Below are positions 4,192-53,800 of a stretch of 59,681 nt of DNA, one piece after another (position 1 is the stretch's first letter; each line of letters opens with the position of its first letter). The notes under the pieces were generated by a model, which saw only the letters and a program-made list of their open reading frames with translations, did not search any database and was not told where the DNA came from. Origin of the DNA: Octopus sinensis (Eukaryota); assembly GCF_006345805.1 (NCBI RefSeq), contig NW_021832977.1, forward strand, positions 1 to 59,681, read 5' to 3'. The position numbers were made by a program, and so were the translations under genes.

Positions 4192-4580
4192 TCACAAACA
4201 CACATATATGAACACGTACATATACAGGCACACATATATAAACATCTGCATACATATTTATATACATATAAATACATATGTGTGTGTGTGTGTCACTGTG
4301 TGTGTGTTTGTATGTGTGTGTATGTATTTCTATATATGCATGCATATGTATGGCTGTGTGTGTGCAATTATGCATATGTATATATGCAATATATCATGAT
4401 ATTGAGTTATGTTATATAGATTATTATAAAGATGTTTAAATGAATTTTTTTCTTATGTATGTACTTGGATATTCTATATTCTGTCTTTCACTTCAAATAT
4501 TTCCCTACACACACACACACACACACTCATACACACACATGTGTATACATATATACACACATATATGTATGTATATATAT

Positions 4581-4661
4581 ATATATGCATCCACATCTAC
4601 CTTTACATGTATGCATATATGTATATATATATATATATATATATACATACATACTTATATA

Positions 4662-4720
<59 letters not shown>

Positions 4721-4880
4721 GTGTGTGTGTGTATGTATGTATATATATAAATATATACATATATGCATACATGTAAAGGTAGATGTGGATGCATATACAT
4801 ATATATATATATATACATACATACATGCTTATATATATATATATATATATGCATCCACATCTACCTTTATATATATGCAT
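4581..4880. repeat. Direct-inverted-direct triplication of a ~35-bp unit
   Basis: tgcatccacatctacctttacatgtatgcatatat at 4586-4620, its reverse complement at 4760-4794, and direct again at ~4850-4880. Confidence 0.9.
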
Positions 4881-8067: not shown

Positions 8068-8650
8068 TCTGGCAGAATCGTTACACTCCCGGCAACATGC
8101 TTAGCGGCATTTAATCCATTATCACGTTTTGAGGTCAAATTCTACCTTGCTTTTCAGTGTCAATAAAATAAATATCAGTTGATCAACGTAATCGACTTTC
8201 CAACTCCGCCCAAATTTCAGGATTTGTGCCTATATTAGTAAAGATTGTTAAGGCGGCCAGCTGGCAGAATCGTTAGGACACATGAGGAAATGCTTAGTGG
8301 TATTTCGCTCGTTGCTACATTCTGAGTTCAAATTCCGCCAAGGTCGAATTTTCCTTTCATCCTTTCGGGGTCGATAAATTATTACCATTGAAACACTAGG
8401 GTCGATGTGGTCGACCAGGACCCTCTTACAAAATTTCATGCTTTGTGCCTATAGTAGAGTGGATTATCAAAGCGGTGAACTGAGCGAAATGCTTAGAGGT
8501 ATTTCGTCTGCTACTACGTTCTTGTTCAAATTCTACCAATGTCGACTTTGCCTTTTATCATTTCGGAGTTGATAAAACCTATTTCAGGGTTGATAAGGTC
8601 TATTTCGGGATTGATAAAACCTATTTCGGGGTTGAATGGACTTACTTTGA
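8068..8650 (+). mobile_element. Three tandem SINE family B copies
   Basis: Heads ctggcagaatcgtta at ~8069 and ~8261; a third copy from ~8470 ends in a minisatellite. Confidence 0.8.
8560..8635 (+). repeat. 21-bp minisatellite (3.6 copies) derived from SINE B core
   Basis: atttcggagttgataaaacct / atttcagggttgataaggtct / atttcgggattgataaaacct / atttcggggttga. Confidence 0.85.
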
Positions 8651-9739: not shown

Positions 9740-12105
9740 AACCAAACAACAAAAATAAGCAGGAAGATGAAGAGAAGGGAAGAGGAATTCCTTCAAGTGA
9801 AGCACCTGCATTTGTTGCCACCGCTGCCACTACCACATCAAAGAAGGGAGAAAGCGGACTTGCAGAAATGTGCCGCAGGATGGAAGTGGTGAAATTGCCA
9901 GAAACTGTCTTGGCTAGTGCAAATATGCATCTAACAAGAACTGGAGGAGCAGTCCATCAGAACACGCCAAAGGAGGTGAAAGAAGAGAGACGGAAATAGA
10001 CTATAATATAGACATGTATATCCTTAAAGACGGCCCTAAGATATGACGGTAAAAAACAAAATCCGTCACAGCAACAATTTGAACACAAATCAACACCAAC
10101 ATCAACATCTTCACAAAACAAACCTATTTTACGAACACATTCACAACCACAAAAATAAAAGCACCCGAGAAACAATATGACCAGCAGTCACACTCTCGGG
10201 TACGTGCTTCCTTTATCAGATTCACTGTTGTTCAGAAGAGCAACATTGAATTGATTGAGGAAGTAATTAATAATAATAAAAAAAGAACACTATACGTGGA
10301 GAAGGTTTTGCGGAACATCTAGAAAACTCAACCGCGCAGTAGGTTAATCCAAACAGACACAGATGCGTATCTTGATTTGAAAGAGAAAGTCCCTCAGGCA
10401 TTGAAGGGTTTAGCAAGTACCAAATAACGAACTTTGTAGAAAATCCCTTCCACGCTACTTACTCCATCAAAAAGAATTCTGTCAACAGTCATCCATAGAG
10501 ACCAAAGAACGTAACTCCATTTTCCCGATTTAGAGTTGGTCGTGTAAATGTTCGGGGCCTGGGTTTAGCTTGGAAGCAGGGTCACCTGCGCATCGATCTC
10601 AGGTCCCTCAATTTAGATGTAACAGGAATTAGTGAGACAAGAATTGCTGGGAAAAATTCACTTTTAAACCATTTTGAAGTAAGGGTAATCTTAGACTCAG
10701 ACGGTAGGTTGGTGGTCTTAGATGTGAATGGCAGTGAAGGTAATACCTTTAGATTGGTGGCTGAGTATGCTCCGCAGGGACTGGGAGGCCAGATTTCTTC
10801 TGGTGCCTAGAAATATTCCTGGGAACGTCTTGCACTTCAGTACTAGTGGTGGACTGAAATAGTATTTTGGATGCACGGAAGGACTGTATGGGTTTAGCAA
10901 ATAGGAGTAGAGAATGTAACAGCCTCGAAAACCTGCTCAGAAACTTCCTGCTTTCTGACAGATATCGACTGGAATTCCACCACACTTAGATATCGACTGG
11001 AATTCCCTGATGTGTCAGTGTGGAGCAATCGAAATAGGTTATCCAGATCGTATCCTGATGGAGTATTTGTTAGGTCAGTGGATAAGGATAGTATAGGGTG
11101 TCCATAGTTCAAATTGGTCGGCTACACAACCACAAATTTGTGATCTGCACAGTCGATTTAGATAAGATGCCTAGATAGGCACCCGGTTACTGGAATTTGA
11201 ACGCGTCCTTTTCGACGCACAAAGACTACAGGGACCGGATTAGCGAACTAGTTAAGCGGCAGTTGACGGGTTGACGGGGGAAATCGTTAATCGCAACTAT
11301 TTGCTGGGGGCGATAGGTCAACGACGATAGCGGACTTTAGTTCATCCCTAGATGATCTGCCACGGCTCTCGGCAGTGGACGTGAGGTTCTGCGAAAAGCC
11401 GATAACGGCCACTGAATACGAGAGGTGATGAGCGATTGCACAAGTCACAAATCGCCAGGTTTAGATGATCTGCTCTTTGAATTCTATGTATTCATGCCAG
11501 ATTTCTTTGAGGACCACTTGGCAGACGGGAGAGTTCTCACTGCTGTTAGTCGGGGTGTGGTGTTACTGCCGGAGAAGGATGCAGACAGTGGTGATATACT
11601 AGAGAATATTCGGCACATAATTCTGCAAAACATATAGTATGCAGTGTCTGCATACGTGGACAACGTCACCGTCATGGTGTGGAGGCCTCTAAAACGGAGA
11701 CAGTTGACTCCATTCCAGAAGAACGTGAGTCTGTGTCAGTGGCTAAAATCAATGCCGAGAAGTCAGCGGGCTTGCGACTGGTGGCCTGAAGAGGCAGGTC
11801 GATGTCGTCGGACGCTGGACTGAGGGACCAGTTAAACTGCTCGGGATCTGATTTGGTCCCAACCTCCAGGTGGTTAAGAACTGGGATGAGGTGACGAACA
11901 GGGTGGTTGAGTCTTACCCAGAAATGGGCTATTAGGGGGCCGTGCTTGAAAGGTCGGGCAATGATGGCGAATGCCTACCTCACCTCCGTTATTATTTATC
12001 GTCTAACCGCCGTACCTTGCCCAAAGTGATTGCTTGATGAAGTCGGAGCGTCATTTCTTCATGTCCTAGTGGAAGGGATGCGTTCCAATGCACCATAAGG
12101 TGGTC
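9740..12105 (+). pseudogene. Degenerate Tx1/L1-clade LINE (possible ORF1 remnant, APE endonuclease and RT remnants)
   Basis: GRVNVRGLG...DVTGISETR (~10540-10640), DSDGRLVVLDVNGSEGNTFRLVAEYAP, GYWNLNAS, KSPGLDDLLFEFY, AYVDNVTV; many stops and deletions; ends at the ATT element near 12110. Confidence 0.8.
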
Positions 12106-12120
12106 AATCTTATTATTATT

Positions 12121-12639
12121 GAGCGAGCGAGCAGTGAAAACCATCAAAGTGACACTGGGGTAAAATATACGAAGCCCAGTATACCCATCAGGACTACCCG
12201 TCTGATAAGGGTACACTAGGCACATGCATCACAACCATGTGCGCTACATGGTGATATCATATCAAGATAAACAGCACATGACCTTGCAGGTGGGGCCCAG
12301 TTAGAATTTTCTTCTGGTCGAGTAACCCTTTTCGCTCAAAAGGTCCCTGAATAAGGATCTTGAACGAAACACCCATGTTTCCTGAGGTGAATTATTCAAA
12401 CTCGAAAGAATCCCTCTCAATACATGGCTATGATGCTCCCCCACTACTGCTGCTCGTGATCAGAGATGCACATATCGTCAGCCGCTAAGGGGCATGCTCA
12501 ACTGGTTAAGGTCAAATAACTGACAAGCATATCTGTGGTATTGAGTAGAATATTTGCTGTAGCCCATCATTTATGCCAAGACAAAACAATGTACATGATA
12601 ACACTTTCAATCAGTTAAGATCAGAAGCCATGAGAGCCA

Positions 12640-12640
<1 letters not shown>
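12121..12640 (+). mobile_element. ~520-bp (ATT)n-flanked non-autonomous element, copy 1 (orientation arbitrary)
   Basis: Closely similar to 36085-36523, 36952-37285 and 37458-37770; bounded by ATT repeats on both sides. Confidence 0.85.
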
Positions 12641-12700
<60 letters not shown>

Positions 12701-12746
12701 ATTATTATTATTAATATTATTATTATTATCATTATTATTATTATTA

Positions 12747-12824
<78 letters not shown>

Positions 12825-12833
12825 TATTATTGT
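12641..12833. repeat. (ATT)n microsatellite
   Basis: Direct read. Confidence 0.95.
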
Positions 12834-13017
12834 TAATCATTCGTAATCGACTTTAATGTCGCTTTCGGCGTCGGTAAAATATGTACCAGTTGAGTACTGT
12901 GTTCACCCTCCCCTCAAAATTTCTGGCTCTGTGCCAACATTTGGAGAAAAATATATCATGATCATTATTATCGCTATCATTAAATGTTGTTGTTTTTATT
13001 AATATTATTGTTATTAG

Positions 13018-19445: not shown

Positions 19446-19822
19446 GACGAGAACATAGATAATAGGAGAAAACTTAAACGGACATGAAATTAGTCTTCCT
19501 TCATTTCATCAGTTATATACGTTTCTGTATTCGGAAATGTATGATGTCGCAGTATAAATAGAACTTATAAATACAGAATACATAGTTCTAGCGAACAGGT
19601 TCGGTTGACAAGTGGTGGACGGACAAACGAAAATACACACACATATACGCACGGACGCATCCCGCGACACACACATAATACATACATACATATAGCTTAT
19701 AAATGAAAGAGATATTTTCCGTATAGATTACACTTCGTCGTGCTCAATAGATTTAAACTAGTGCGGGTAGTGGAGAAAACCTGAGTACAAGCAAGTGAGG
19801 CAAGTCGATATACAAAAAAAAT

Positions 19823-20402
19823 ATTCTTTTCTAATATAGGCACAAGGGCCGAAATTTTGGGGGCGGGGGCCAGTCGACATTATCGACCCCAGTACGCAAC
19901 TGGTACATAATTTATCGACCCCGAAAGGATGAAAGGCAAGGCCGACCTCGGCAGCATTTAAAATCAGAACTTAAAAACAGACGAAATACCTATTTCTTTA
20001 CAACCCACAAGGGGGCTATACACAGAGAGGACAAACAAAGACAGACAAATGGATTAAGTCGATTATATCGAGCCAATGCGTAACTGGTACTTATTTAATC
20101 GACCCCAAAAGGATGAAAGGCAAGTCGACCTCGGCGGAATTTGAACTCAGAACGTAGCGGCAGACGAAATACCTATTTCTTTACTACCCACAAGGGGCTA
20201 AACACAGAGAGGACAAAAAATGACAGACAAACGGATCAAGTCGATTGCATCGACCCCAGTGCGTAATTGGTACTTAATCGACCCCGAAAGGATGAAAGAT
20301 AAAGTCGACCTCGGCGGAATTTGAACTCAGAACGTAGCGGCAGACGAAATACCGCTAAGCATTTCGCCCGGCGTGCTAACGTTTCTGCCAGCTCGCCGCC
20401 TT
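19823..20402 (-). mobile_element. Young SINE family B with internally triplicated core
   Basis: Core tcgacccc...gatgaaagg...gacctcggc...agacgaaatacc occurs three times, joined by a repeated linker tatttcttta..acccacaagggg. Confidence 0.88.
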
Positions 20403-24158: not shown

Positions 24159-24391
24159 TATTTCTTTACTACCCACAAGGGGCTAAACACAGAGAGGACA
24201 AAGAAGGACTGACAAACGGATTAAGTCGATTATATCGACCCCAGTGCGTAATTGGTTCTTAATTTATCGACCCCGAAAGGATGAAAGGCAACGTCGACCT
24301 CGGCGGTATTTGAACTCAGAACGTAACGGTAGACGAAATACGGCTATACATTTCGCCCGGTGTGCTAACGACTCTGCCAGCTCGCCCGCAG
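24159..24391 (-). mobile_element. SINE family B with 15-bp TSD
   Basis: TSD aataagtta(t/c)tttct at 24144-24158 and 24392-24406. Confidence 0.88.
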
Positions 24392-26920: not shown

Positions 26921-27424
26921 ATATTCGCGTGTGTATGTGCATGTGAATGTGTGTATATGTTTGTGTGTGTGTGTGTGTGTGATATTTCGATTTAAATCGG
27001 GCTAAATGAGGGGAAACATGAACCTAACGACATGAAATAACAAAATAAGAAAGGTTTCTAATAGTGGGAAAGATAGAGGGAAATTTCGGACAATATACAC
27101 GAGCATTGATCGTCTCTGGAGTACTCTTGTATTGAGTACTTTTTTTCTGTACTCATTATCGTAATCTACTTGTGATTTCTACTGTCAAATTGTATTATTT
27201 CCTAGCCATGAAGACATAGACCAACTACTTCATTTAGATTACCTTTCATATATTAGGGAAAATCACGCACATTGTAATGTATATCGCCATCTGTACTATT
27301 CGTATAGTATACCCGATCAAACCTAATATAGGGTTAAAGATCATCATCATCATCAAGAACGACAATAAAAGCAAAGACACAAATTTGGAATACCCGTTTT
27401 TGTATTCCAAATTAAAGAACAACA

Positions 27425-33459: not shown

Positions 33460-33535
33460 AGCAATTAAGGGTTTAGCAATTGCTATTTCTAAATTCGGTG
33501 TGTGGTGAGGCAATTCGTTGCTAAACCCTTAATTG

Positions 33536-33537
<2 letters not shown>
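33460..33537. repeat. Perfect 20-bp inverted repeat in a (TA)n-flanked module
   Basis: agcaattaagggtttagcaa (33460-33479) / ttgctaaacccttaattgct (33518-33537). Confidence 0.9.
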
Positions 33538-35754: not shown

Positions 35755-36084
<330 letters not shown>

Positions 36085-36523
36085 GAGCGAGGGAGCAGTG
36101 CATGCCATCGAAGTGACACTGAAGTAAAATATACGAAGCCTAGTATACCCATCATGATTACCCGTCTGATAAGGGTACACCAGGCACATGCATCACAACC
36201 ATATGTGTGCGAGTGCGACATGGTGATCTCATATCAAGATAAACAACACATGACCTTGCAGGTGGGGCCCAGTTAGAATTATCTTCTGGTCGAGTAGCCC
36301 ATCCCGCTCAAAAGATCCCTGAATAAGGATTGTTTAAGGATGTTGAAAGAACCACCCAAGTTTCCAAAGGTGAATTATCCAAACCTCTAAGAATCCCTTT
36401 CAGCACACGACTATGATGCTCCCTCATTACTTCTGCTCATGATCAGAATATTTGCTGTAGCCCATTTTTTAGATCAAGACAAAACAATGTACATGATAAT
36501 ACTTCCAATCAGTTAAGATCAGC
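36085..36523 (+). mobile_element. (ATT)n-flanked element, copy 2 (internal deletion)
   Basis: Matches 12121-12640 with a deletion at gatcag|aatatttgc. Confidence 0.85.
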
Positions 36524-36524
36524 A

Positions 36525-36565
<41 letters not shown>

Positions 36566-36687
36566 TATTTTTATTATTATAATTATAATAATAATAATAA
36601 TTATTATTATTATTATTATTATCATCATCATCATCATCACCATCCTCATCATCATCATTTTTTAAAATAATAATAATAATAATAATA

Positions 36688-36755
<68 letters not shown>

Positions 36756-36951
36756 CATTATTATATAGTATTCTGCTGAACACCACACTTTTGCTTGTCA
36801 GTTGCTTAACTTTAACCAGTTGTGCATATTTCCTTCACTTAGACTATTTCTAGCTCATTATAAATAGTGGTGACATGATCCACCAAAGTTTCTTCGTTCG
36901 AAAATGGAGAGAAAGGTAAGACATGGTGCACTACCACAGAATGTGGTAATT

Positions 36952-37285
36952 GCCCTGATGCAGTACCAGGCAGTGGCTCTCATGGCTCCTGATCTTAACT
37001 GATTGGAAGTGTTATCATGTACATTGTTTTGTCTTGGTATAAAAGATGGGCTACAGCAAATATTCTGAGCGGGATGGGCTACTCAACCTGAAGAAAATTC
37101 TAACTGGGTCCCACCTGCAAGGTCATGTGCTGTTTATCTTGATATGAGATCACCATGTCGCGCACATATGGTTGTGATGCATGTGCCTGGTGTACCTTTA
37201 TCAGACGGGTAGTCATGATGGGTATATTGGGCTTCGTATATTTTACCCCAGTGTCACTTTGATGGCATGCACTGCTCTCTCACTC
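36952..37285 (-). mobile_element. (ATT)n-flanked element, copy 3 (inverted, internal deletion)
   Basis: Reverse complement of copy 1; deletion at aatattctg|agcgggatggg; runs into (AAT)n. Confidence 0.85.
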
Positions 37286-37295
37286 AATAATAATA

Positions 37296-37352
<57 letters not shown>

Positions 37353-37357
37353 CAATG

Positions 37358-37457
<100 letters not shown>

Positions 37458-37770
37458 CCTTGATGCAGTACGAGGCAGTGGCTCTCATGTATTCTGATCT
37501 TAACTGATTGGAAGCATTATCATGTTCATTGTTTTGACCTGTTATAAAAGATGGGCTACAGCAAATATCTTGCTTAATACCACAGATTTGCTTGTCAGTT
37601 GCTTGACCTTAATCAGTTGAGCATGTCACCTGGTGGCTGACGTTATGTGCATCTCTGATCATGAGTAGAATTAGTAGTGGAGCATCACAGCCACGTATTG
37701 AAGGGAATTCTTTGGAGTTTGGATAATTCCCCTTTGCAAACATGGGTGTTTCGTTCAACAACCCTTATCT
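37458..37770 (-). mobile_element. (ATT)n-flanked element, copy 4 (partial)
   Basis: tgatgcagtac...gtggctctcatg...aaacatgggtgtttcgttcaaca. Confidence 0.85.
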
Positions 37771-38409: not shown

Positions 38410-39050
38410 TGAACCGTACTTGAACGACATGAAGTTAAATGTTGCGAACTTTAAATTATCAAGCAACTTGCAAAGATTCCATGATGCTATAGAAAGTATC
38501 CATCTTGACCCAAACAATCTATGGGAAGATTTCAAAACAAAAGTATTTCAGGCTGTAAGTTCGTCAGTGGGATTTAAATCACATAAGTCCAGTGACTGGT
38601 TCACAGACTGATCAGCAGAAATTCATGATCTACTTTTAGAAAAACAATACACTTCTTTCTCAGTCCTTGAACACCAACTCAAACGAAACTTACAGAAAGC
38701 TGAAAAGGCAAATTCAGACTTCTCTAACGAAAATTAAACAGGATTTGTGGAATGATAGAGCAAATGGGGTACAAGAAGCAGTTGATAGAAAATGACGCCA
38801 AGGGTTTGTACTTTTATGTTAAGGAGATATATGGTCCAAAACCTTCTTCAATAGCTCCAGTGAGAACAGCAAATGGACGTTTTCTTCTGACTGATACAGC
38901 TTCTATTCATGAGCATTGGGTGGAACATTTTTCCGCATTTCTGAATAGCCTATCATCCGTTGACATGAGAACGATAGAAAAACATGGAAAACCTTCCAGC
39001 CATAGAAGAGATGGCATTTGAACCAACTCTAAATGACATTTATTTACCTC
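38410..39050 (+). pseudogene. RTE-clade LINE remnant (EN-RT linker)
   Basis: LWEDFKTKVFQ...DWF; NDAKGLYFYVKEIYGPKPSSIAPVRTANGRFLLTD...HWVEHFSAFLN. Confidence 0.75.
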
Positions 39051-43930: not shown

Positions 43931-44940
43931 TTAGATGAAGAGAAATTTCCTGAGAATGTGGGCGGTGGATATCAACACAGTGTTTGAGTCACATTAATTG
44001 TTGGTTTCCCAGGAATCTTGTCAAAAAGTTTGGCTGTACCTTTTCCTGGCCATTCTTAGGGCACGTACAACAACAAGGATTGATCTGGTTTTTAATTGCC
44101 ACGTCCTAGATATCTTAATCTCAAGGTTCTCATATTTCGAAAGCTTTTCGAATTTCTTTGCTGAGACGTTACTATCAATAAACAGTCAGATCAATAAAAA
44201 GGCATGTTGTATTTTGTCATACGTATTTGATGACGATGTCTGGTCTGTAGGCATTTATTTGCTTGTCTGTATTTATCTCATAATCCCAAACGACGATGAT
44301 AAGATTCTATCACTCTGTTACTGGCTCTGGGCGATGTCATGCTAGTTCTTCGGGTGTGGTATATCATAGTGACATCATATATTCCAGTGCAAGTATTGGC
44401 CAACTATATCACACCTGTTTTTCATATTCTGTAGGGGCAAAGATTGAGCAACTGGCAAAAATGTTGTTAGTAATCTCAAGTTTAACATTTCAGACTCTAC
44501 ACTTTGTGCCTACCTAATTGTATGTGGCATTAGGTTGATAGTTCTGAGCGAGGCGACCCTGTTTTGGGTTACTGGGATAAATCCTTCTGTTTCGGTTTTC
44601 AAACAAACACTCTGCGGCAACTGATCAGTTTCTCCAGCTCGTTTGTGGTATTACCAACGCAATGGGTTTTCTTGCCACAATCATGATATTTTCTTCAAGC
44701 TTTCCTGTTTGACTTTGGTTTTACAAATGTTTGCTGTGGTGTGTCCTCCTTGTCATCATAATCAGGGAGGTTAAGCTCTCGTCTGTATTTATATGCCTTC
44801 TTTGAGACTGAGTGTAGTTTCTTACTCTGTTTTAATGCACCTAAATTGTAGGGTATTTCTAAGTGTCCAGGTGTTTCTTCAAGTTGAGTGGTATTCAACT
44901 CAATGGTGGTATCAGTGACAGAGTGTCTAACCTCTCCTCG
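43931..44940 (-). pseudogene. R4/Dong-like RLE non-LTR retrotransposon, 3' ORF remnant
   Basis: Minus strand KKLHSVSKKAYKY, CSILAPTEY..DIVGQYLHW, RPDIVIK..CLFIDLTV..NVSAKKFEKLSKYENLEIKISRTW (PD-(D/E)xK endonuclease), ending VLISTAHILRKFLFI-stop at 43931. Confidence 0.85.
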
Positions 44941-45387
44941 TCTAAGGAAATTTTCGAGACAGCAGCTCTCTACTACTACTACTATACTACTACTACTACT
45001 ACTACTACACACACACATACGCACACACACGCACATGTATATGGAAAAAATAGAAGTTGAAAATGCACAGAGAATAGTTAAAAATTTGTTTATTAATATA
45101 TTTAAATCTTTAACCGGTTTCACAGTTAATACTCGTTTTCAGTGTAAATTGTCAAACAGGATAAAGCTTTAAATATATAAATAAAAAATATTTAAACTAT
45201 TCTCAGTGCATTTCCAACTTCTGTTTTACATTTTACCTATATCTCTACCTGTGTGGAATAAAATAACTTTGTTTTCTATATGTATATATATATACTTCCT
45301 GAGCGTTAAACTAATACATCTGTTTGTTGTCTACACTACCTGTCTTCGTCATTGTTTTTGTGAATTCTCCCTATATATATTTATATG

Positions 45388-47050: not shown

Positions 47051-47106
<56 letters not shown>

Positions 47107-47117
47107 TATATTATATA

Positions 47118-47193
<76 letters not shown>

Positions 47194-47228
47194 GTAATAT
47201 ATATATAGATTTTTTATTATATAGAAGG

Positions 47229-47278
47229 AGCTTCTACAGAACTAGAACTGTTTCATTCAAGAGAAATCTTCAGGAGCT
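47229..47278 (-). ncRNA. Type-I hammerhead ribozyme, left arm
   Basis: Minus strand AGCTC-CTGAAGA-tTTCtcttGAAt-GAAA-CAG-ttctagtt-CTG-TA-GAAGCT; intact core and GUA cleavage triplet. Confidence 0.75.
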
Positions 47279-47574
47279 AGTTAACAAGATTGTATTGGCA
47301 TTTATACATTTAGGCAGGTTTAAAGGGGTGTTGGTGGGGGACTTTTTGGGGGGTAGGCATAGCGCAAAAAATCATACTTGGGGAGTGGTCAAGGAGTCAG
47401 TGTTAATTAGATAGGAGAATAATAAAAAAATAAAAAATAAAAAAAAAAATAAAAAATAAAAAATAACAAATAAAAAATATAAAATATAAAAAATAAAAAA
47501 TAAAAAATTAAAAATAGAAAATAGAAAAATAAAAAATATAATAAAAATATATGTAAAAAAAAAAAAAAAAATAA

Positions 47575-47626
<52 letters not shown>

Positions 47627-48509
47627 ATTATATATTATATATATGTATAAAGGGGGGGAATAGAGTTTTAGGTAAATAAGGAGATTCTCACTTATACCTC
47701 TACACATACACACATATATATACAATCACACATACATATACATATCTACACATACACATATATAATGTATACATACACACACTCACTTGCATACACGTAT
47801 ACACACATGTATATATACACACGACCACACATACATACACACAATACACACAGAAAAATATATATATACACATACACACACATCTACTCACATACACGCA
47901 TACACACACAAATCCATACACACACATGCACACACAGCACACTAGTCCCTATATACCCATATATACACATACACACATATATACACCACCCAGGCATACA
48001 CATACATACACATATATATACATACATACACATACATATACACATATATATACATACACATATATATATATACACACACATATATATACATATGTGTACC
48101 ATGCATACCTACCACATACACACATATATATATACATATACAAATACAGACCCATCAGCTAATTTTAATTTTATTATCTTCGTTTATTACTTTTGTTATC
48201 TTTGCCGTTTGGTCACAAACACTTGGCTATGACAGCCAGACCATTTATCCGTCTACTGGAAAAACAATTACTCATTCACTCACGCACACTCTCTTAGCAC
48301 GTACACTCACTCATTCGTACACTCATACGCATACACGCACGCACGCGTTATATTCATACATACATACATCTACATACATTCACGTATATACACATACGTA
48401 CGCGTACCTACAGATTCATGTCTACACTCTTAGAAGGCTAGTCTATACATATACACCAATAAATATAAATACACACACATACATGTACACCTACATACAA
48501 ATACATACA

Positions 48510-48542
<33 letters not shown>

Positions 48543-48699
48543 CTAATATATATATTATATAATATATACGCGTACCTACAGATTCATGTCTACACTCTTA
48601 GAAGGCTAGTCTATACTATACCCCCTAAATATAAATACACACACATACATACATGTACACCTACATACAAAATACTACATGTACATATATACATACACA

Positions 48700-48754
<55 letters not shown>

Positions 48755-49060
48755 TATACATATTATATTCATACTAACATGCATACTCAAAAAATAAGTA
48801 AATAGTAAATATATATACGCGCAGTTATTCATACATGCATACTCAAAAAATAAATATTAAGTATATGTACGTGCAGTTACCTATTATATAGACGGATACA
48901 TACATATAAAAACTTACACACATAGATAGATATATATATATATTATATATATATATATATATACACATACATACACACACACACATACTATAAATCTATA
49001 CATACACACATACACCTACATATACACATACACACATACATACATATATATATATATAGA

Positions 49061-49093
<33 letters not shown>

Positions 49094-49879
49094 TACACAT
49101 ACATATACATACACATACATACATATATATACACATACTTACACATGTACATATAAATACACACATAGATAACTCTACGTACCTACACATACATAAACAC
49201 ACGAGCGTACGCGCATATGTACATATACAATATACCCATGCACACGCATATATATACATACATACATACACATACACACATGTATACACCACACTCACAT
49301 ACACATATATATACATACACATATATATACACATATATATATATATGTATACATATATATATATATATATATATATAACCACATATACATCCACACACAT
49401 ACACACACACTATATATACATGTGTGCAAACATACATACATTCTCATACAAGCACACACACATACATTTACATATATACACACACTTACACACATATATA
49501 TACATACACACCTACATATACACATACATATGCATACACACAAATATACATATATACATACATACATCTATACATATATACACACACACACACACACGCG
49601 CACATACATATATATATATACATACATATACACACACACATATATATATATATACACACATATATATATACACACATATATATTTTTTTACATACATACA
49701 CGCACACACACACATAATACATGCGTATAATCCTACTATACCCATACATTCTATACATATATACGATACACATCTACAAGCGTGCACATACAATATGTGA
49801 AAGGTCTTAGGAGAAAAGGTAATCGGGGGTGCTAGGGAACGGTGGGATTGGGGGGGTTTTGTGGTGGGGTGTCATCAAT

Positions 49880-50010
49880 CTGGTTGCCGGGTAGGTCTAT
49901 AGTTCTTGTAGTTCGCATACTTCTTATGCATACAATTTGGGAGTGTTCTGAGATTTTGTTAAGGAGAGGGCCTTTGGCGAACAAGATCTCTAGGCTCTCC
50001 GATATGCAGC
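49880..50010 (-). pseudogene. C-terminal end of a PLE ORF (GIY-YIG region tail), mirrored at ~50018-50130 on +
   Basis: CISESLEILFAKGPLLNKISE then, after a frameshift, LPNCMHKKY; resembles the PLE terminus C.LCL.EKL.I...LLNKRSE...CRH. Confidence 0.6.
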
Positions 50011-51101
50011 CTAGAGATCGGAGAGCCTAGAGATCTTGTTCGCCAAAGGCCCTCTCCTTAAAAAATCTCAGAACACTCCCAAATTGTATGCATAAGAAGT
50101 ATGCGAACTACAAGAACTATAGACCTACCCGCAACCAGATTGATGACACCCCACCCACAAAACCCCCCCAATCCCACCGTTCCCCTAGCACCCCCGATTA
50201 CCTTTTCTCCTAAGACCTTTCACATATTGTATGTGCACGCTTGTAGATGTGTATCGTATATATGTATAGAAATGTATGGGTATAGTAGGATTATACGCAT
50301 GTATTATGTGTGTGTGTGCGTGTATGTATGTAAAAAAATATATATGTGTGTATATATATATTGTGTGTATATATATATATATGTGTGTGTGTATATGTAT
50401 GTATATATATATATGTATGTGCGTGTGTGTGTGTGTGTGTGTATATATGTATAGATGTATATATGTATATATGTATATTTGTGTGTATGCATATGTATGT
50501 GTATATGTATGTGTGTATGTATATATATTGTGTAAGTGTGTGTATATATGTAATGGTAAGTGTGTGTGCTTGTATGAGAATGTATGTATGTTTGCACACA
50601 ATGTATATATGTGTGTGTATGTGTGTGTGTATGTATATGTGTGGTATATATATAATATATATATATATAATATATATATATATGTATACATATATATATA
50701 TATATGTGTATATATATGTGTATGTATATATATGTGTATGCGAGTGTGTGTGTATACATGTGTGTATGTGTATGTATGTATGTATATATATGCGTGTGCA
50801 TGGGTATATGTATATGTACATATGCGCGTACGCTCGTGTGTTTATGTATGTGTAGTACGTAGAGTCTATGTGTGTATTTATATGTACATGTGTAAGTATG
50901 TGTATATATATTGTATGTATGTGTATGTATATGTATGTGTATGTGTGTGTGTGTTATATATATATATTATATAATATATATATATATATATATTATGTAT
51001 GTGTGTGTATGTGTATATGTAGGTGTATGTGTGTATGTATATATTTATATGTATGTGTGTGTGTGTATGTATGTTTAATTATATATATATATATATATAT
51101 C

Positions 51102-51137
<36 letters not shown>

Positions 51138-51319
51138 AAGTTTATTATATGTATGTATCCGTCTATATAATAGGTAACTGCACGTACATATACTTAATAT
51201 TTATTTTTTGAGTATGCATGTATGAATAACTGCGCGTATATATATTACTATTTACTTATTTTTTGAGTATGCATGTTAGTATGAATATATATATGTATAT
51301 ATATGTAGTATATATATAG

Positions 51320-51351
<32 letters not shown>

Positions 51352-52674
51352 AATGTACATGTATGTATTGTATGTAGGTGTACATTTATGTATGTGTGTG
51401 TATTTATATTTAGGGGTTATATGTATAGACTAGCCTTCTAAGAGTGTAGACATGAATCTGTAGGTACGCGTATATAATATATAGATATATATATATATAT
51501 ATTAATATGTACAGTATGTATTGTATGTAGGTGTACATGGTGTGTTTATTTATATTTATTGTGTATATGTATAGACTAGCCTTCTAAGAGTGTAGACATG
51601 AATCTGTAGGTACGCGTACGTATGTGTATATACGTGAATGTATGTAGATGTATGTATGTATGAATATAACGCGGTGCGTGCGTGTATGCGTATGAGTGTA
51701 CGAATGAGTGAGTGTACGTGCTAAAGAGTGTGCGTGAGTGAATGAGTAATTGTTTTCCAGTAGACGGATAAATGGTCTGGCTGTCATAGCCAAGATGTTT
51801 GTGACCAAGCGGCAAAGATAACAAAAGTAAATAACGAAGATATAAAATTAAAATTAGGGAATGGTCTGTATTTGTATATGTTATATATATGTGTGTATGT
51901 GTAGGTATGCATGGGTACACATATGTATATATATGTGTGTATATATATATATGTGTATGTATATATATGTGTATATGTATGTGTATGTATGTATATATAT
52001 GTGTATGTATGTGTATGCTTGGGTGTATATATATGTGTGTATGTGTATATATGTGTATATAGGGACTAGTGTGCTGTGTGTGCATGTGTGGTGTATGGAT
52101 TGTGTGTGTATGCGTAGTGAGTAGATGTGTGTGTATGTGTATATATATTTTTTCTGTGTGTATATGTATGTGTGGTCGTGTGTGTATATATACATGTGTG
52201 TATACGTGTATGCAAGTGAGTGTGTGTATGTATACATATATAGGTCTGTAGGTGTAGATATGTATATGTATGTGTGATTGTATATATATGTGTGTATGTG
52301 TAGAGGTATAAGTGAGAATCTCCTTATTTACCTAAAACTCTATTCCCCCCCTTTATACATATATATATATATATATATTTTTTTTTTTACATATATTTTT
52401 TATATTTTTTTATTTTCTATTTCTATTTTTATTTTTTATTTTTATTTTTTATATTTTATATTTTTTTATTTGTTATTTTTTTATTTTTATTTTTTATTTT
52501 TTTTTTTTTATTTTTTATTTTTTATTTATTCTCCCAAGTATTCTCCCAAGTATTTATTCTCCCCCAAGTATGATTTTTTTGCGCTATGCCTACCTACCCC
52601 CCAAAAAGTCCCCACCCACCAAACACCCCTTTAACCTCCTAAATGTATAAATGCCAATACAATTCTTGTTAACT

Positions 52675-52724
52675 AGCTTCCTGAAGATTTCTCTTGAATG
52701 AACAGTTCTAGTCCTGTAGAAGCT
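52675..52724 (+). ncRNA. Type-I hammerhead ribozyme, right arm
   Basis: AGCTTC-CTGAAGA-tTTCtcttGAAt-GAA-CAG-ttctagtc-CTG-TA-GAAGCT; perfect 6-bp stem I, with one A of GAAA missing in this copy. Confidence 0.7.
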
Positions 52725-52806
52725 CCTTCTATATAATAAATTAATTTTACCTGCTATGTATTGAGTACCTTATTACTGTGTGGTTAACCCCGAATCAACC
52801 CGGGAC

Positions 52807-52849
<43 letters not shown>

Positions 52850-52859
52850 TATATATATA

Positions 52860-52900
<41 letters not shown>

Positions 52901-53449
52901 CACACACGCACTTTATATCCGTTCTTCACTTATTTATTACTGTTCTTATTTTAAGTCATGTCCATTGTCCGGAAATTTTTCGTTACACATCCGTGATCTC
53001 TTCAGCGATACTTTCCGTGCTTGTATATACCCCTGCTTCGCTTAATCCACACTTTCCTGCGACGTGTATTCTTATATGCACATGCGTTTCCGTCTGTATA
53101 TGTTTGTCTATGTGTGTGCGTGTGTATGTGCATGTGTGTGCGTGTGTGTGTATGAGTGTGCGTACACACATACAATTGAAAGCGCATGTTACAATCTTCA
53201 TCCGTGCTAGTTATGTTCATTGATCCATTACAAATAATAGAACAAAATGGAGTAAGCCGATCAGGAGCATACTCGAAGAGGGAAAGTGTCACTGGGAGGT
53301 CACAGACGCGTGACGAAAGATTTCCGGAAAATGGACATGAATTATAATGAGAACACTGAGAGACGAGTGGCGAACGAATATATAATTCGTGTTTATTTGG
53401 AAGACAAAAAGACCTTCCCGAAATATAACTACATATATATTCAGAATTC

Positions 53450-53800
53450 TGCATTTCATGCTTTTGGGGTCGATAGATAAAGTACCAGTAGAGCACTAGG
53501 GTCAATATAATCGGTCTGCCTGCTTCCCTGAAATGTCTGCACTTGTGATGAAATTTGAAATTATTATTAAAAGAGACAAATAAAAGGCGGTGAACTGGAA
53601 GAATCATTAGCAACCCAGGCAAGATGCTTAGCGGCATTTCGTCCATCTCTACGTTCCGAGTTAAAATTCCACCGATGTCAACTTCCCTTTCATCCTTTCA
53701 CGGCTAATAAAATAAATACCAGTTGAGTACTGGAGTCGATAGAATCGGCTTACACCCTGTCCCGAAATTTACAAGCCTTGTGCTAAATATTGAAACATTT
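53450..53800 (+). mobile_element. Two tandem SINE family B copies
   Basis: tttcatgcttttggggtcgata...; aaggcggtgaactggaagaatcattagc...gccttgtgc. Confidence 0.8.

Follow-up and report, generated by a model that had tools for sequence, protein, structure and literature searches.

Organisation of the locus

The window analysed here is a stretch of 59,681 nucleotides of AT-rich, microsatellite-dense DNA from Octopus sinensis (contig NW_021832977.1 of assembly GCF_006345805.1), in which a self-BLAST detected one large inverted repeat at 47054-52904, with an identity of 89% including the TA tracts. The features of this palindrome and its borders, from left to right, are as follows.

47054-47212, no strand: (TA)n tract to the left of the insertion, after a repeat which we take to be SINE-like
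47213-50008, minus strand: left arm, a 5'-truncated PLE-like copy of about 2.8 kb, antisense on the plus strand
47228-47280, minus strand: type I hammerhead-like motif of the left arm, core CTGAAGAT...TGAAAC intact
49832-50008, minus strand: open remnant of 58 codons plus stop, like an endonuclease C-terminus in a by-eye comparison with the supplement of PMC8557442
49985-49996, plus strand: 12-mer of the left arm, being either the template of the junction insert or its mirror
49997-50008, plus strand: end of the left arm, where 49997-50003 pairs with the right arm and 50004-50008 is extra element sequence
50008-50019, plus strand: templated 12-nt junction segment, the net new bases being 50009-50016
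50017-52740, plus strand: right arm, a 5'-truncated copy, sense on the plus strand
50024-50035, plus strand: native right-arm 12-mer, 16 nt after the junction copy
50230-52560, plus strand: 3' UTR-like region rich in microsatellites, with TG/TA repeats and a T-rich tract; its mirror image lies at about 47400-49790
52675-52724, plus strand: type I hammerhead-like motif of the right arm, with a six-bp stem I and one A missing from the GAAA core
52741-52809, plus strand: 69-nt extension of the right arm only, a candidate PLE 3' tail
52810-52904, no strand: (TA)n tract to the right of the insertion

The polarity of the arms, taken from the peptide remnant and the hammerhead-like motif, is that of two 5'-truncated copies arranged head to head. 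The insertion has (TA)n on both sides, the target expected of the Hydra clade, and the sequences beyond the arms are unrelated between the left and right flanks apart from low-complexity matches. No target-site duplication was found, the sole shared k-mer being a 7-mer within a microsatellite, and no tRNA genes were found in the window. The left arm ends about 22 nt past the predicted hammerhead cleavage site, and the right arm is followed, between the end of the homology and the right (TA)n, by the 69-nt extension, which is absent from the left arm and the left flank. Within the window there is no second copy either of this extension or of the element family. The extra 69 nt are probably the tail of the element; the usual PLE tail measures 30-40 bp, and a tail on one only of two inverted ends has been described (PMC3846280).

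The arms differ from each other by 85 indel events (59 of them of 1 nt) and 43 substitutions in 2875 columns, whereas two older repeat pairs in the window, compared over about 230 columns each, show 19 substitutions and a single indel apiece. Since their differences are dominated by indels, unlike those of the two older pairs, the arms are considered to be biologically near-identical and poorly polished. Indel-rich arms fit a young inverted repeat, but also thin read support. There are no substitutions in the first 300 nt, after which the divergence is roughly flat and highest near the outer end, a profile that does not discriminate between origins.

The arms also carry block differences at their outer ends. 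At 52520-52620, as compared with 47330-47425, about 30 nt of the left arm are replaced in the right arm by short tandem copies of adjacent sequence, and the same part of the right arm shows 4-nt and 3-nt duplications, a second slippage-like footprint. Both arms share an internal direct duplication with a period of about 165 nt (48399-48671 and 51366-51618) and a 21-nt duplication (48777/48833 and 51201/51256).

The raw-read-like consensus of the arms is also what would be left by an artefact, in which a fold-back read in one element copy was bridged by the assembler to a near-identical copy elsewhere; among nanopore genomic reads, about 0.6% are fold-backs, which can entangle an assembly (PMC12870357). 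Such an origin is nevertheless improbable, as each arm stops in (TA)n at what looks like an element boundary, the junction holds an exact templated copy of 12 nt, and the TA runs are broken as often inside the arms (4.47 breaks per 100 nt, 7 runs) as outside them (4.42, 40 runs). These equal rates fit an assembly that is noisy wherever polishing fails. A PacBio adapter motif has no match in the window. A plain mirror read is excluded because the mirror symmetry stops before the unrelated flanks, and the remark of the earlier sequence-only reading that simple read fold-back is no obvious source of the junction is to that extent fair, but it does not extend to a chimeric join between two copies of the family.

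Peptide remnant and hammerhead-like motifs

Read outwards from the centre in the left arm, the remnant starts CISESLEILFAKGPLLNKIS, and its first 20 or so residues resemble by eye the C-terminus of the Hydra-clade GIY-YIG endonucleases, which end in C-x-L-C-x-x-E-x-x-x-I...LN (Craig et al. 2021, PMC8557442). When CISESLEILFAKGPLLNKIS was compared by eye with the Hydra-2_Ajap row ending CIDEKLCILLSK--NPHL--LNKRS, 13 of 21 columns matched. A pattern built from the Hydra rows, chosen post hoc after the site had been seen, matched once in the six frames of the window, exactly at 50008, and once in 200 shuffles. For the CxxC that precedes the conserved E, the second Cys is in frame at 50008-50006 and the first lies beyond the truncation. 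The CxH after the conserved N, termed a 'possible' motif in the Hydra clade (PMC8557442), is absent: the remnant reads LNKISEHSQIVCIR, in which a Cys follows with no His two residues on. In the right arm a 1-nt deletion near 50062 shifts the frame, and past this frameshift the same residues are obtained. Both copies are truncated downstream of the expected position of the RT, with 58 codons left, and the regions for RWK, DKT, the CxCX5C linker and the CCHH loss are missing from both.

Database searches with the remnant gave no family in Pfam and, in a word-based search for homologues, none among longer proteins (four candidates) or among those of similar lengths. Two matches from a profile library were both rejected as unrelated repeat proteins, one a WD40 protein and the other a tandem-repeat protein. 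In bacterial and archaeal genomes, the one locus retained from 582 pattern matches proved to be a short chance match over an 8-residue stretch in the non-conserved end, and it has no DNA match to the window.

The hammerhead-like motifs lie about 2.5 kb outwards of the peptide remnant, beside (TA)n, in the layout of the Hydra hammerhead table. A search of the window with the core pattern of that table, again a post hoc choice, gave a single site where 0.01 would be expected. The two arms are each short of one base of the motif, and not of the same one: stem I of the left-arm copy is one base shorter than that of the right-arm copy, which itself lacks an A in the core. A strict hammerhead scan of the window yielded no sites, and an Rfam search returned no hammerhead, with sub-threshold matches only, which were microsatellite-driven. 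PLE hammerheads are treated in PMC4209133; the motif of the window differs from those of all the Hydra families listed in PMC8557442, including Hydra-1_Obim, and the 11-mer that opens it has no match in the supplement of that paper.

The likeness to the Hydra clade as described in PMC8557442 comprises the C-x-x-E-x3-I...LNK ending, the hammerhead layout with the core CTGANGAT ... TGAAAC, the (TA)n target, for which Hydra elements have an insertion preference, the inverted 5'-truncated copy, of which one Hydra element is listed with an example, and the continuation of the sequence past the hammerhead. With regard to the last, three of the six Hydra consensus sequences run about 90-110 nt past the hammerhead and contain a GAGCAC-like word; here, GAGTAC is found 45 nt past the predicted cleavage site and bears, by eye, a weak resemblance to it. 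Unlike the Hydra clade, the remnant has no CxH after LNK, and about 2.5 kb of microsatellite-rich sequence separate the stop from the hammerhead, whereas whole Hydra elements are generally shorter than 3 kb (PMC8557442).

Three weak, independent and agreeing features thus suggest that the family be filed as a Hydra-like PLE, and not as a proven Hydra member. The palindrome itself is likely to be a real inverted insertion of a PLE. A retroelement insertion appears to be its most likely origin, because of what the arms carry (the endonuclease-like peptide end, the hammerhead-like motifs and the (TA)n target) and not because of the junction between them.

The central junction

The sequence-only reading had described a 12-bp stem with an 11-nt loop at the centre of the palindrome and a recurrence of the same 12-mer inside the right arm, and both proved to be exact. 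By occurrence count, GATCTCTAGGCT is found once in the window, at 49985, and its reverse complement AGCCTAGAGATC twice, at 50008 and 50024. The segment 49985-49996 pairs with 50008-50019 in a stem of exactly 12 bp that does not extend further, around the loop 49997-50007, and the direct repeat 50008-50019/50024-50035 is likewise exactly 12 nt long, with no extension either way. The long arms, whose paired extent is 47213-50003 and 50017-52740, pair perfectly over 45 bp outwards from 50003/50017, which leaves 13 unpaired bases (50004-50016) at the centre.

A complex 12-bp hairpin anywhere in the window is not rare: 12 such 12-mer pairs occur at 3 sites, while 30 local shuffles averaged 1.8 and reached at most 7. 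The position of this one is another matter, for a random 13-nt spacer compared with the first 44 nt of the arm gave a 12-nt match in 4 of 200,000 trials; given its position, the match at the junction is not due to chance.

On the minus strand, 50008-50003 comprise a Cys and an Ile codon in frame with the Hydra-like C-x-x-E motif that they open, and the left arm is therefore 5 nt longer than the right. As the hairpin loop is in this way element sequence, every base of the junction is templated, the path being the left arm to 50008, the 12-nt copy at 50008-50019 and the right arm from 50017. The junction segment shares 1 nt with the left arm, or 2 if 50009 too belongs to the element, as it would were the preceding codon to end in C. 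With the right arm it shares 3 nt, the ATC at 50017-50019, which both closes the short stem and opens that arm.

The simplest description of 50008-50035 is a direct repeat with a period of 16 nt, from which the 12-mer could be taken as a natural tandem duplication within the element, with the right arm starting earlier than the left. This is very improbable because 16 nt break the reading frame; translation from 50008 leaves the motif, and the loop, read on the minus strand, supplies the conserved Cys in frame.

Polymerase at the junction

Since every junction base is templated, the two successive jumps through microhomology proposed in the sequence-only reading are correct as a description and account for the whole junction. 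Their attribution to self-priming at both steps finds no such support, as priming in trans or slippage on another cDNA gives the same sequence. Three routes would leave an identical sequence: the left cDNA may snap back and prime again within itself, it may prime on a second cDNA, or the right cDNA may slip by 16 nt before end joining.

An insert templated from adjoining sequence and flanked by microhomologies (1-2 nt and 3 nt) is also what is expected of SD-MMEJ and Pol theta. Snap-back synthesis followed by reannealing at a new microhomology is an SD-MMEJ product of host repair, whose cis and trans routes often yield the same junction (Khodaverdian et al. 2017, PMC5728401). The present junction resembles that system in its short primer repeat, limited templated synthesis, release and renewed annealing through another microhomology; it differs in that nuclease-cut plasmid DNA was joined there and retroelement cDNA would be joined here. 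The same footprint arises at DNA breaks in Drosophila (PMC5728401), and short fold-back inserts form at breaks in yeast (PMC11724301). Because host end joining leaves the same footprint, the latter is not RT-specific and does not point to an RT; the polymerase could be the RT of the element or a host enzyme such as Pol theta. Of the RT-mediated origin favoured in the sequence-only reading, the retroelement insertion itself is thus retained as most likely, on the features of the arms, but not the footprint as its proof.

Other retroelements offer parallels. In L1 twin priming and with R2 proteins (PMC11702581, PMC11371274), an RT extends both target ends, inversion junctions are closed by microhomology, as described for L1, and cDNA snaps back at 5' junctions in cells, as described for R2. 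The two arms of L1 twin priming derive from adjacent, mostly non-overlapping parts of the RNA (PMC11702581), whereas here the same 3' 2.8 kb are found in both. No description of templated inserts at PLE inversion junctions was found in the literature searched, outside which fell most subscription papers and preprint supplements; a 2026 retrozyme preprint and an Octopus vulgaris repeat paper, in their accessible parts, contain nothing at the level of the junction.

Formation of the palindrome

The origin favoured here, to which somewhat less than an even chance is given, is that of a young head-to-head insertion of two 5'-truncated Hydra-clade-like Penelope copies in (TA)n, joined by synthesis-dependent microhomology end joining. 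The polarity, the common element ends, the fully templated junction and the one-sided 69-nt extension are read directly in the sequence. Both strands of the (TA)n target would be nicked and each would prime a cDNA on the element RNA, the left cDNA starting beside the hammerhead and the right cDNA 69 nt further 3'. Both cDNAs would stop within about 5 nt of one point, probably a shared 5' end of the RNA. The end of the left cDNA would then prime through 1-2 nt and copy 12 nt, either by snap-back or on the other cDNA, and the new ATC end would pair with the GAT end of the right cDNA, fill-in completing both arms.

The 69 additional nucleotides of the right arm, probably a tail, favour the joining of two cDNAs, and a one-sided tail on inverted ends has been described as typical of PLEs (PMC3846280). 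In vitro, both strands are nicked and extended by a purified PLE protein, whose synthesis begins at two neighbouring sites on the RNA by which the tail is defined (PMC11167929). The block differences near the outer ends of the arms count for the same route, as does, weakly, the GAGTAC word. Against it stand a family that database searches do not support, the absence of the Hydra C-terminal CxH, a candidate tail of 69 nt instead of the usual 30-40, the error-rich sequence of the arms, and the additional assumption needed for two independent cDNAs to end no more than 5 nt apart after 2.8 kb.

That near-identity of the truncation points (within 5 nt, with a 13-nt centre after about 2.8 kb) is directly explained by fold-back, that is, by the route of the sequence-only reading, in which only one cDNA, that of the left arm, is made. 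After folding back and copying 12 nt, it would prime a second time in cis through ATC/GAT and serve as its own template for the right arm. The polarity fits such a course, the extra element bases being on the left arm; palindromes at inverted PLE junctions have been read as self-priming on an antisense template (PMC3846280), and cDNA made by R2 proteins does snap back in cells (PMC11371274). However, the 69 nt that only the right arm possesses, if they are an element tail, cannot be contained in a copy of the left cDNA. The first primer would itself be unstable (+2.3 kcal/mol), and the intramolecular second step would have to melt the 12-bp stem (-11.1 kcal/mol) for one of 3 bp (+1.5 kcal/mol), a cost of about 12.6 kcal/mol for re-priming in cis; the block differences at the outer ends would need later mutation. 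Self-priming of one cDNA throughout is accordingly regarded as unlikely, yet worth serious consideration.

A comparison can also be drawn with the pLTRs of Penelope elements in Adineta vaga (Arkhipova et al. 2013, PMC3846280), which share with the present insertion the inverted arms arranged head to head, the palindrome at the junction and a tail at one end only, and for which self-priming was proposed. The pLTR arms there measure about 200 bp as against 2.8 kb here, target-site duplications are frequent there and none is discernible here, and the insertion in the window has no full ORF. The templated 12-nt insert has no counterpart in the passages of that paper used for this comparison.

A single truncated insertion could also have been inverted and duplicated later by host replication or repair (fold-back, MMBIR or SD-MMEJ), with no RT at the junction. 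The footprints at Drosophila and yeast breaks cited above (PMC5728401, PMC11724301) agree with such a duplication, as does the inverted triplication that lies within a TA/CA tract of the same window, at 4580-4869. It would, however, have to stop at the 3' end of the element and add 69 nt that the left flank lacks, and head-to-head pairs are a routine product of PLE insertion (PMC3846280); a host duplication is decidedly improbable.

Other repeats in the window

The triplication at 4580-4869 consists of a complex stretch of 24-39 nt in forward, inverted and forward orientation (4582-4620, 4759-4797 and 4844-4869), lying inside the TA/CA tract; it is a template-switch-like footprint in which no element-like features were seen. 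A second repeat family occurs within ATT/AAT microsatellites at 35914-37768, where it comprises one forward and one inverted copy plus inverted fragments, with a relative at 12107-12835; it is considered older because the pair tested differs mainly by transitions. An imperfect palindrome of 181 bp at 45047-45227, about 80% self-complementary, may be MITE-like. Perfect inverted repeats are found at 33460-33537 (20 bp, 38-nt spacer) and 27382-27413 (12 bp, 8-nt T-rich loop), and a direct repeat of about 18 nt, at a spacing of 28 nt, at 10960-11005. Nested tandem fragments at 19817-20402 belong to a dispersed repeat that is also present at 8250-8577, 24159-24386 and 53584-53752. Short open frames at 38728-39021 (plus strand) and 44695-45138 (minus strand) resemble decayed LINE protein fragments.

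Implications for Penelope-like elements

Palindromic inverted junctions have already been described for Penelope elements (PMC3846280), and the seam in the window is most likely a structure of this known kind, a PLE-like inverted junction with an ordinary templated-insertion footprint. Craig et al. 2021 (PMC8557442) name the way in which PLEs form their inverted repeats as an unresolved task, and in the in vitro study of 2024 the later stages were left unvalidated (PMC11167929). As the loop can be assigned to one arm by its reading frame, the junction gives the direction of synthesis. A single junction in a noisy consensus decides nothing, and many such junctions could separate self-priming from two-ended priming.

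A more far-reaching interpretation, which is on the unlikely side, is that the way in which PLE palindromes arise has left its record in the junction together with the one-sided tail: two nicked target strands would prime on the same RNA, instead of self-priming on an antisense template, and the resulting cDNAs of the same polarity would become joinable only after a short copy made at one end provides microhomology, in what would be a new Hydra-like lineage with a microsatellite-filled 3' UTR of 2.5 kb. Should this be true and general, short templated inserts and nearly coincident truncation points would be expected at head-to-head junctions of PLEs and could be counted in any accurate assembly.
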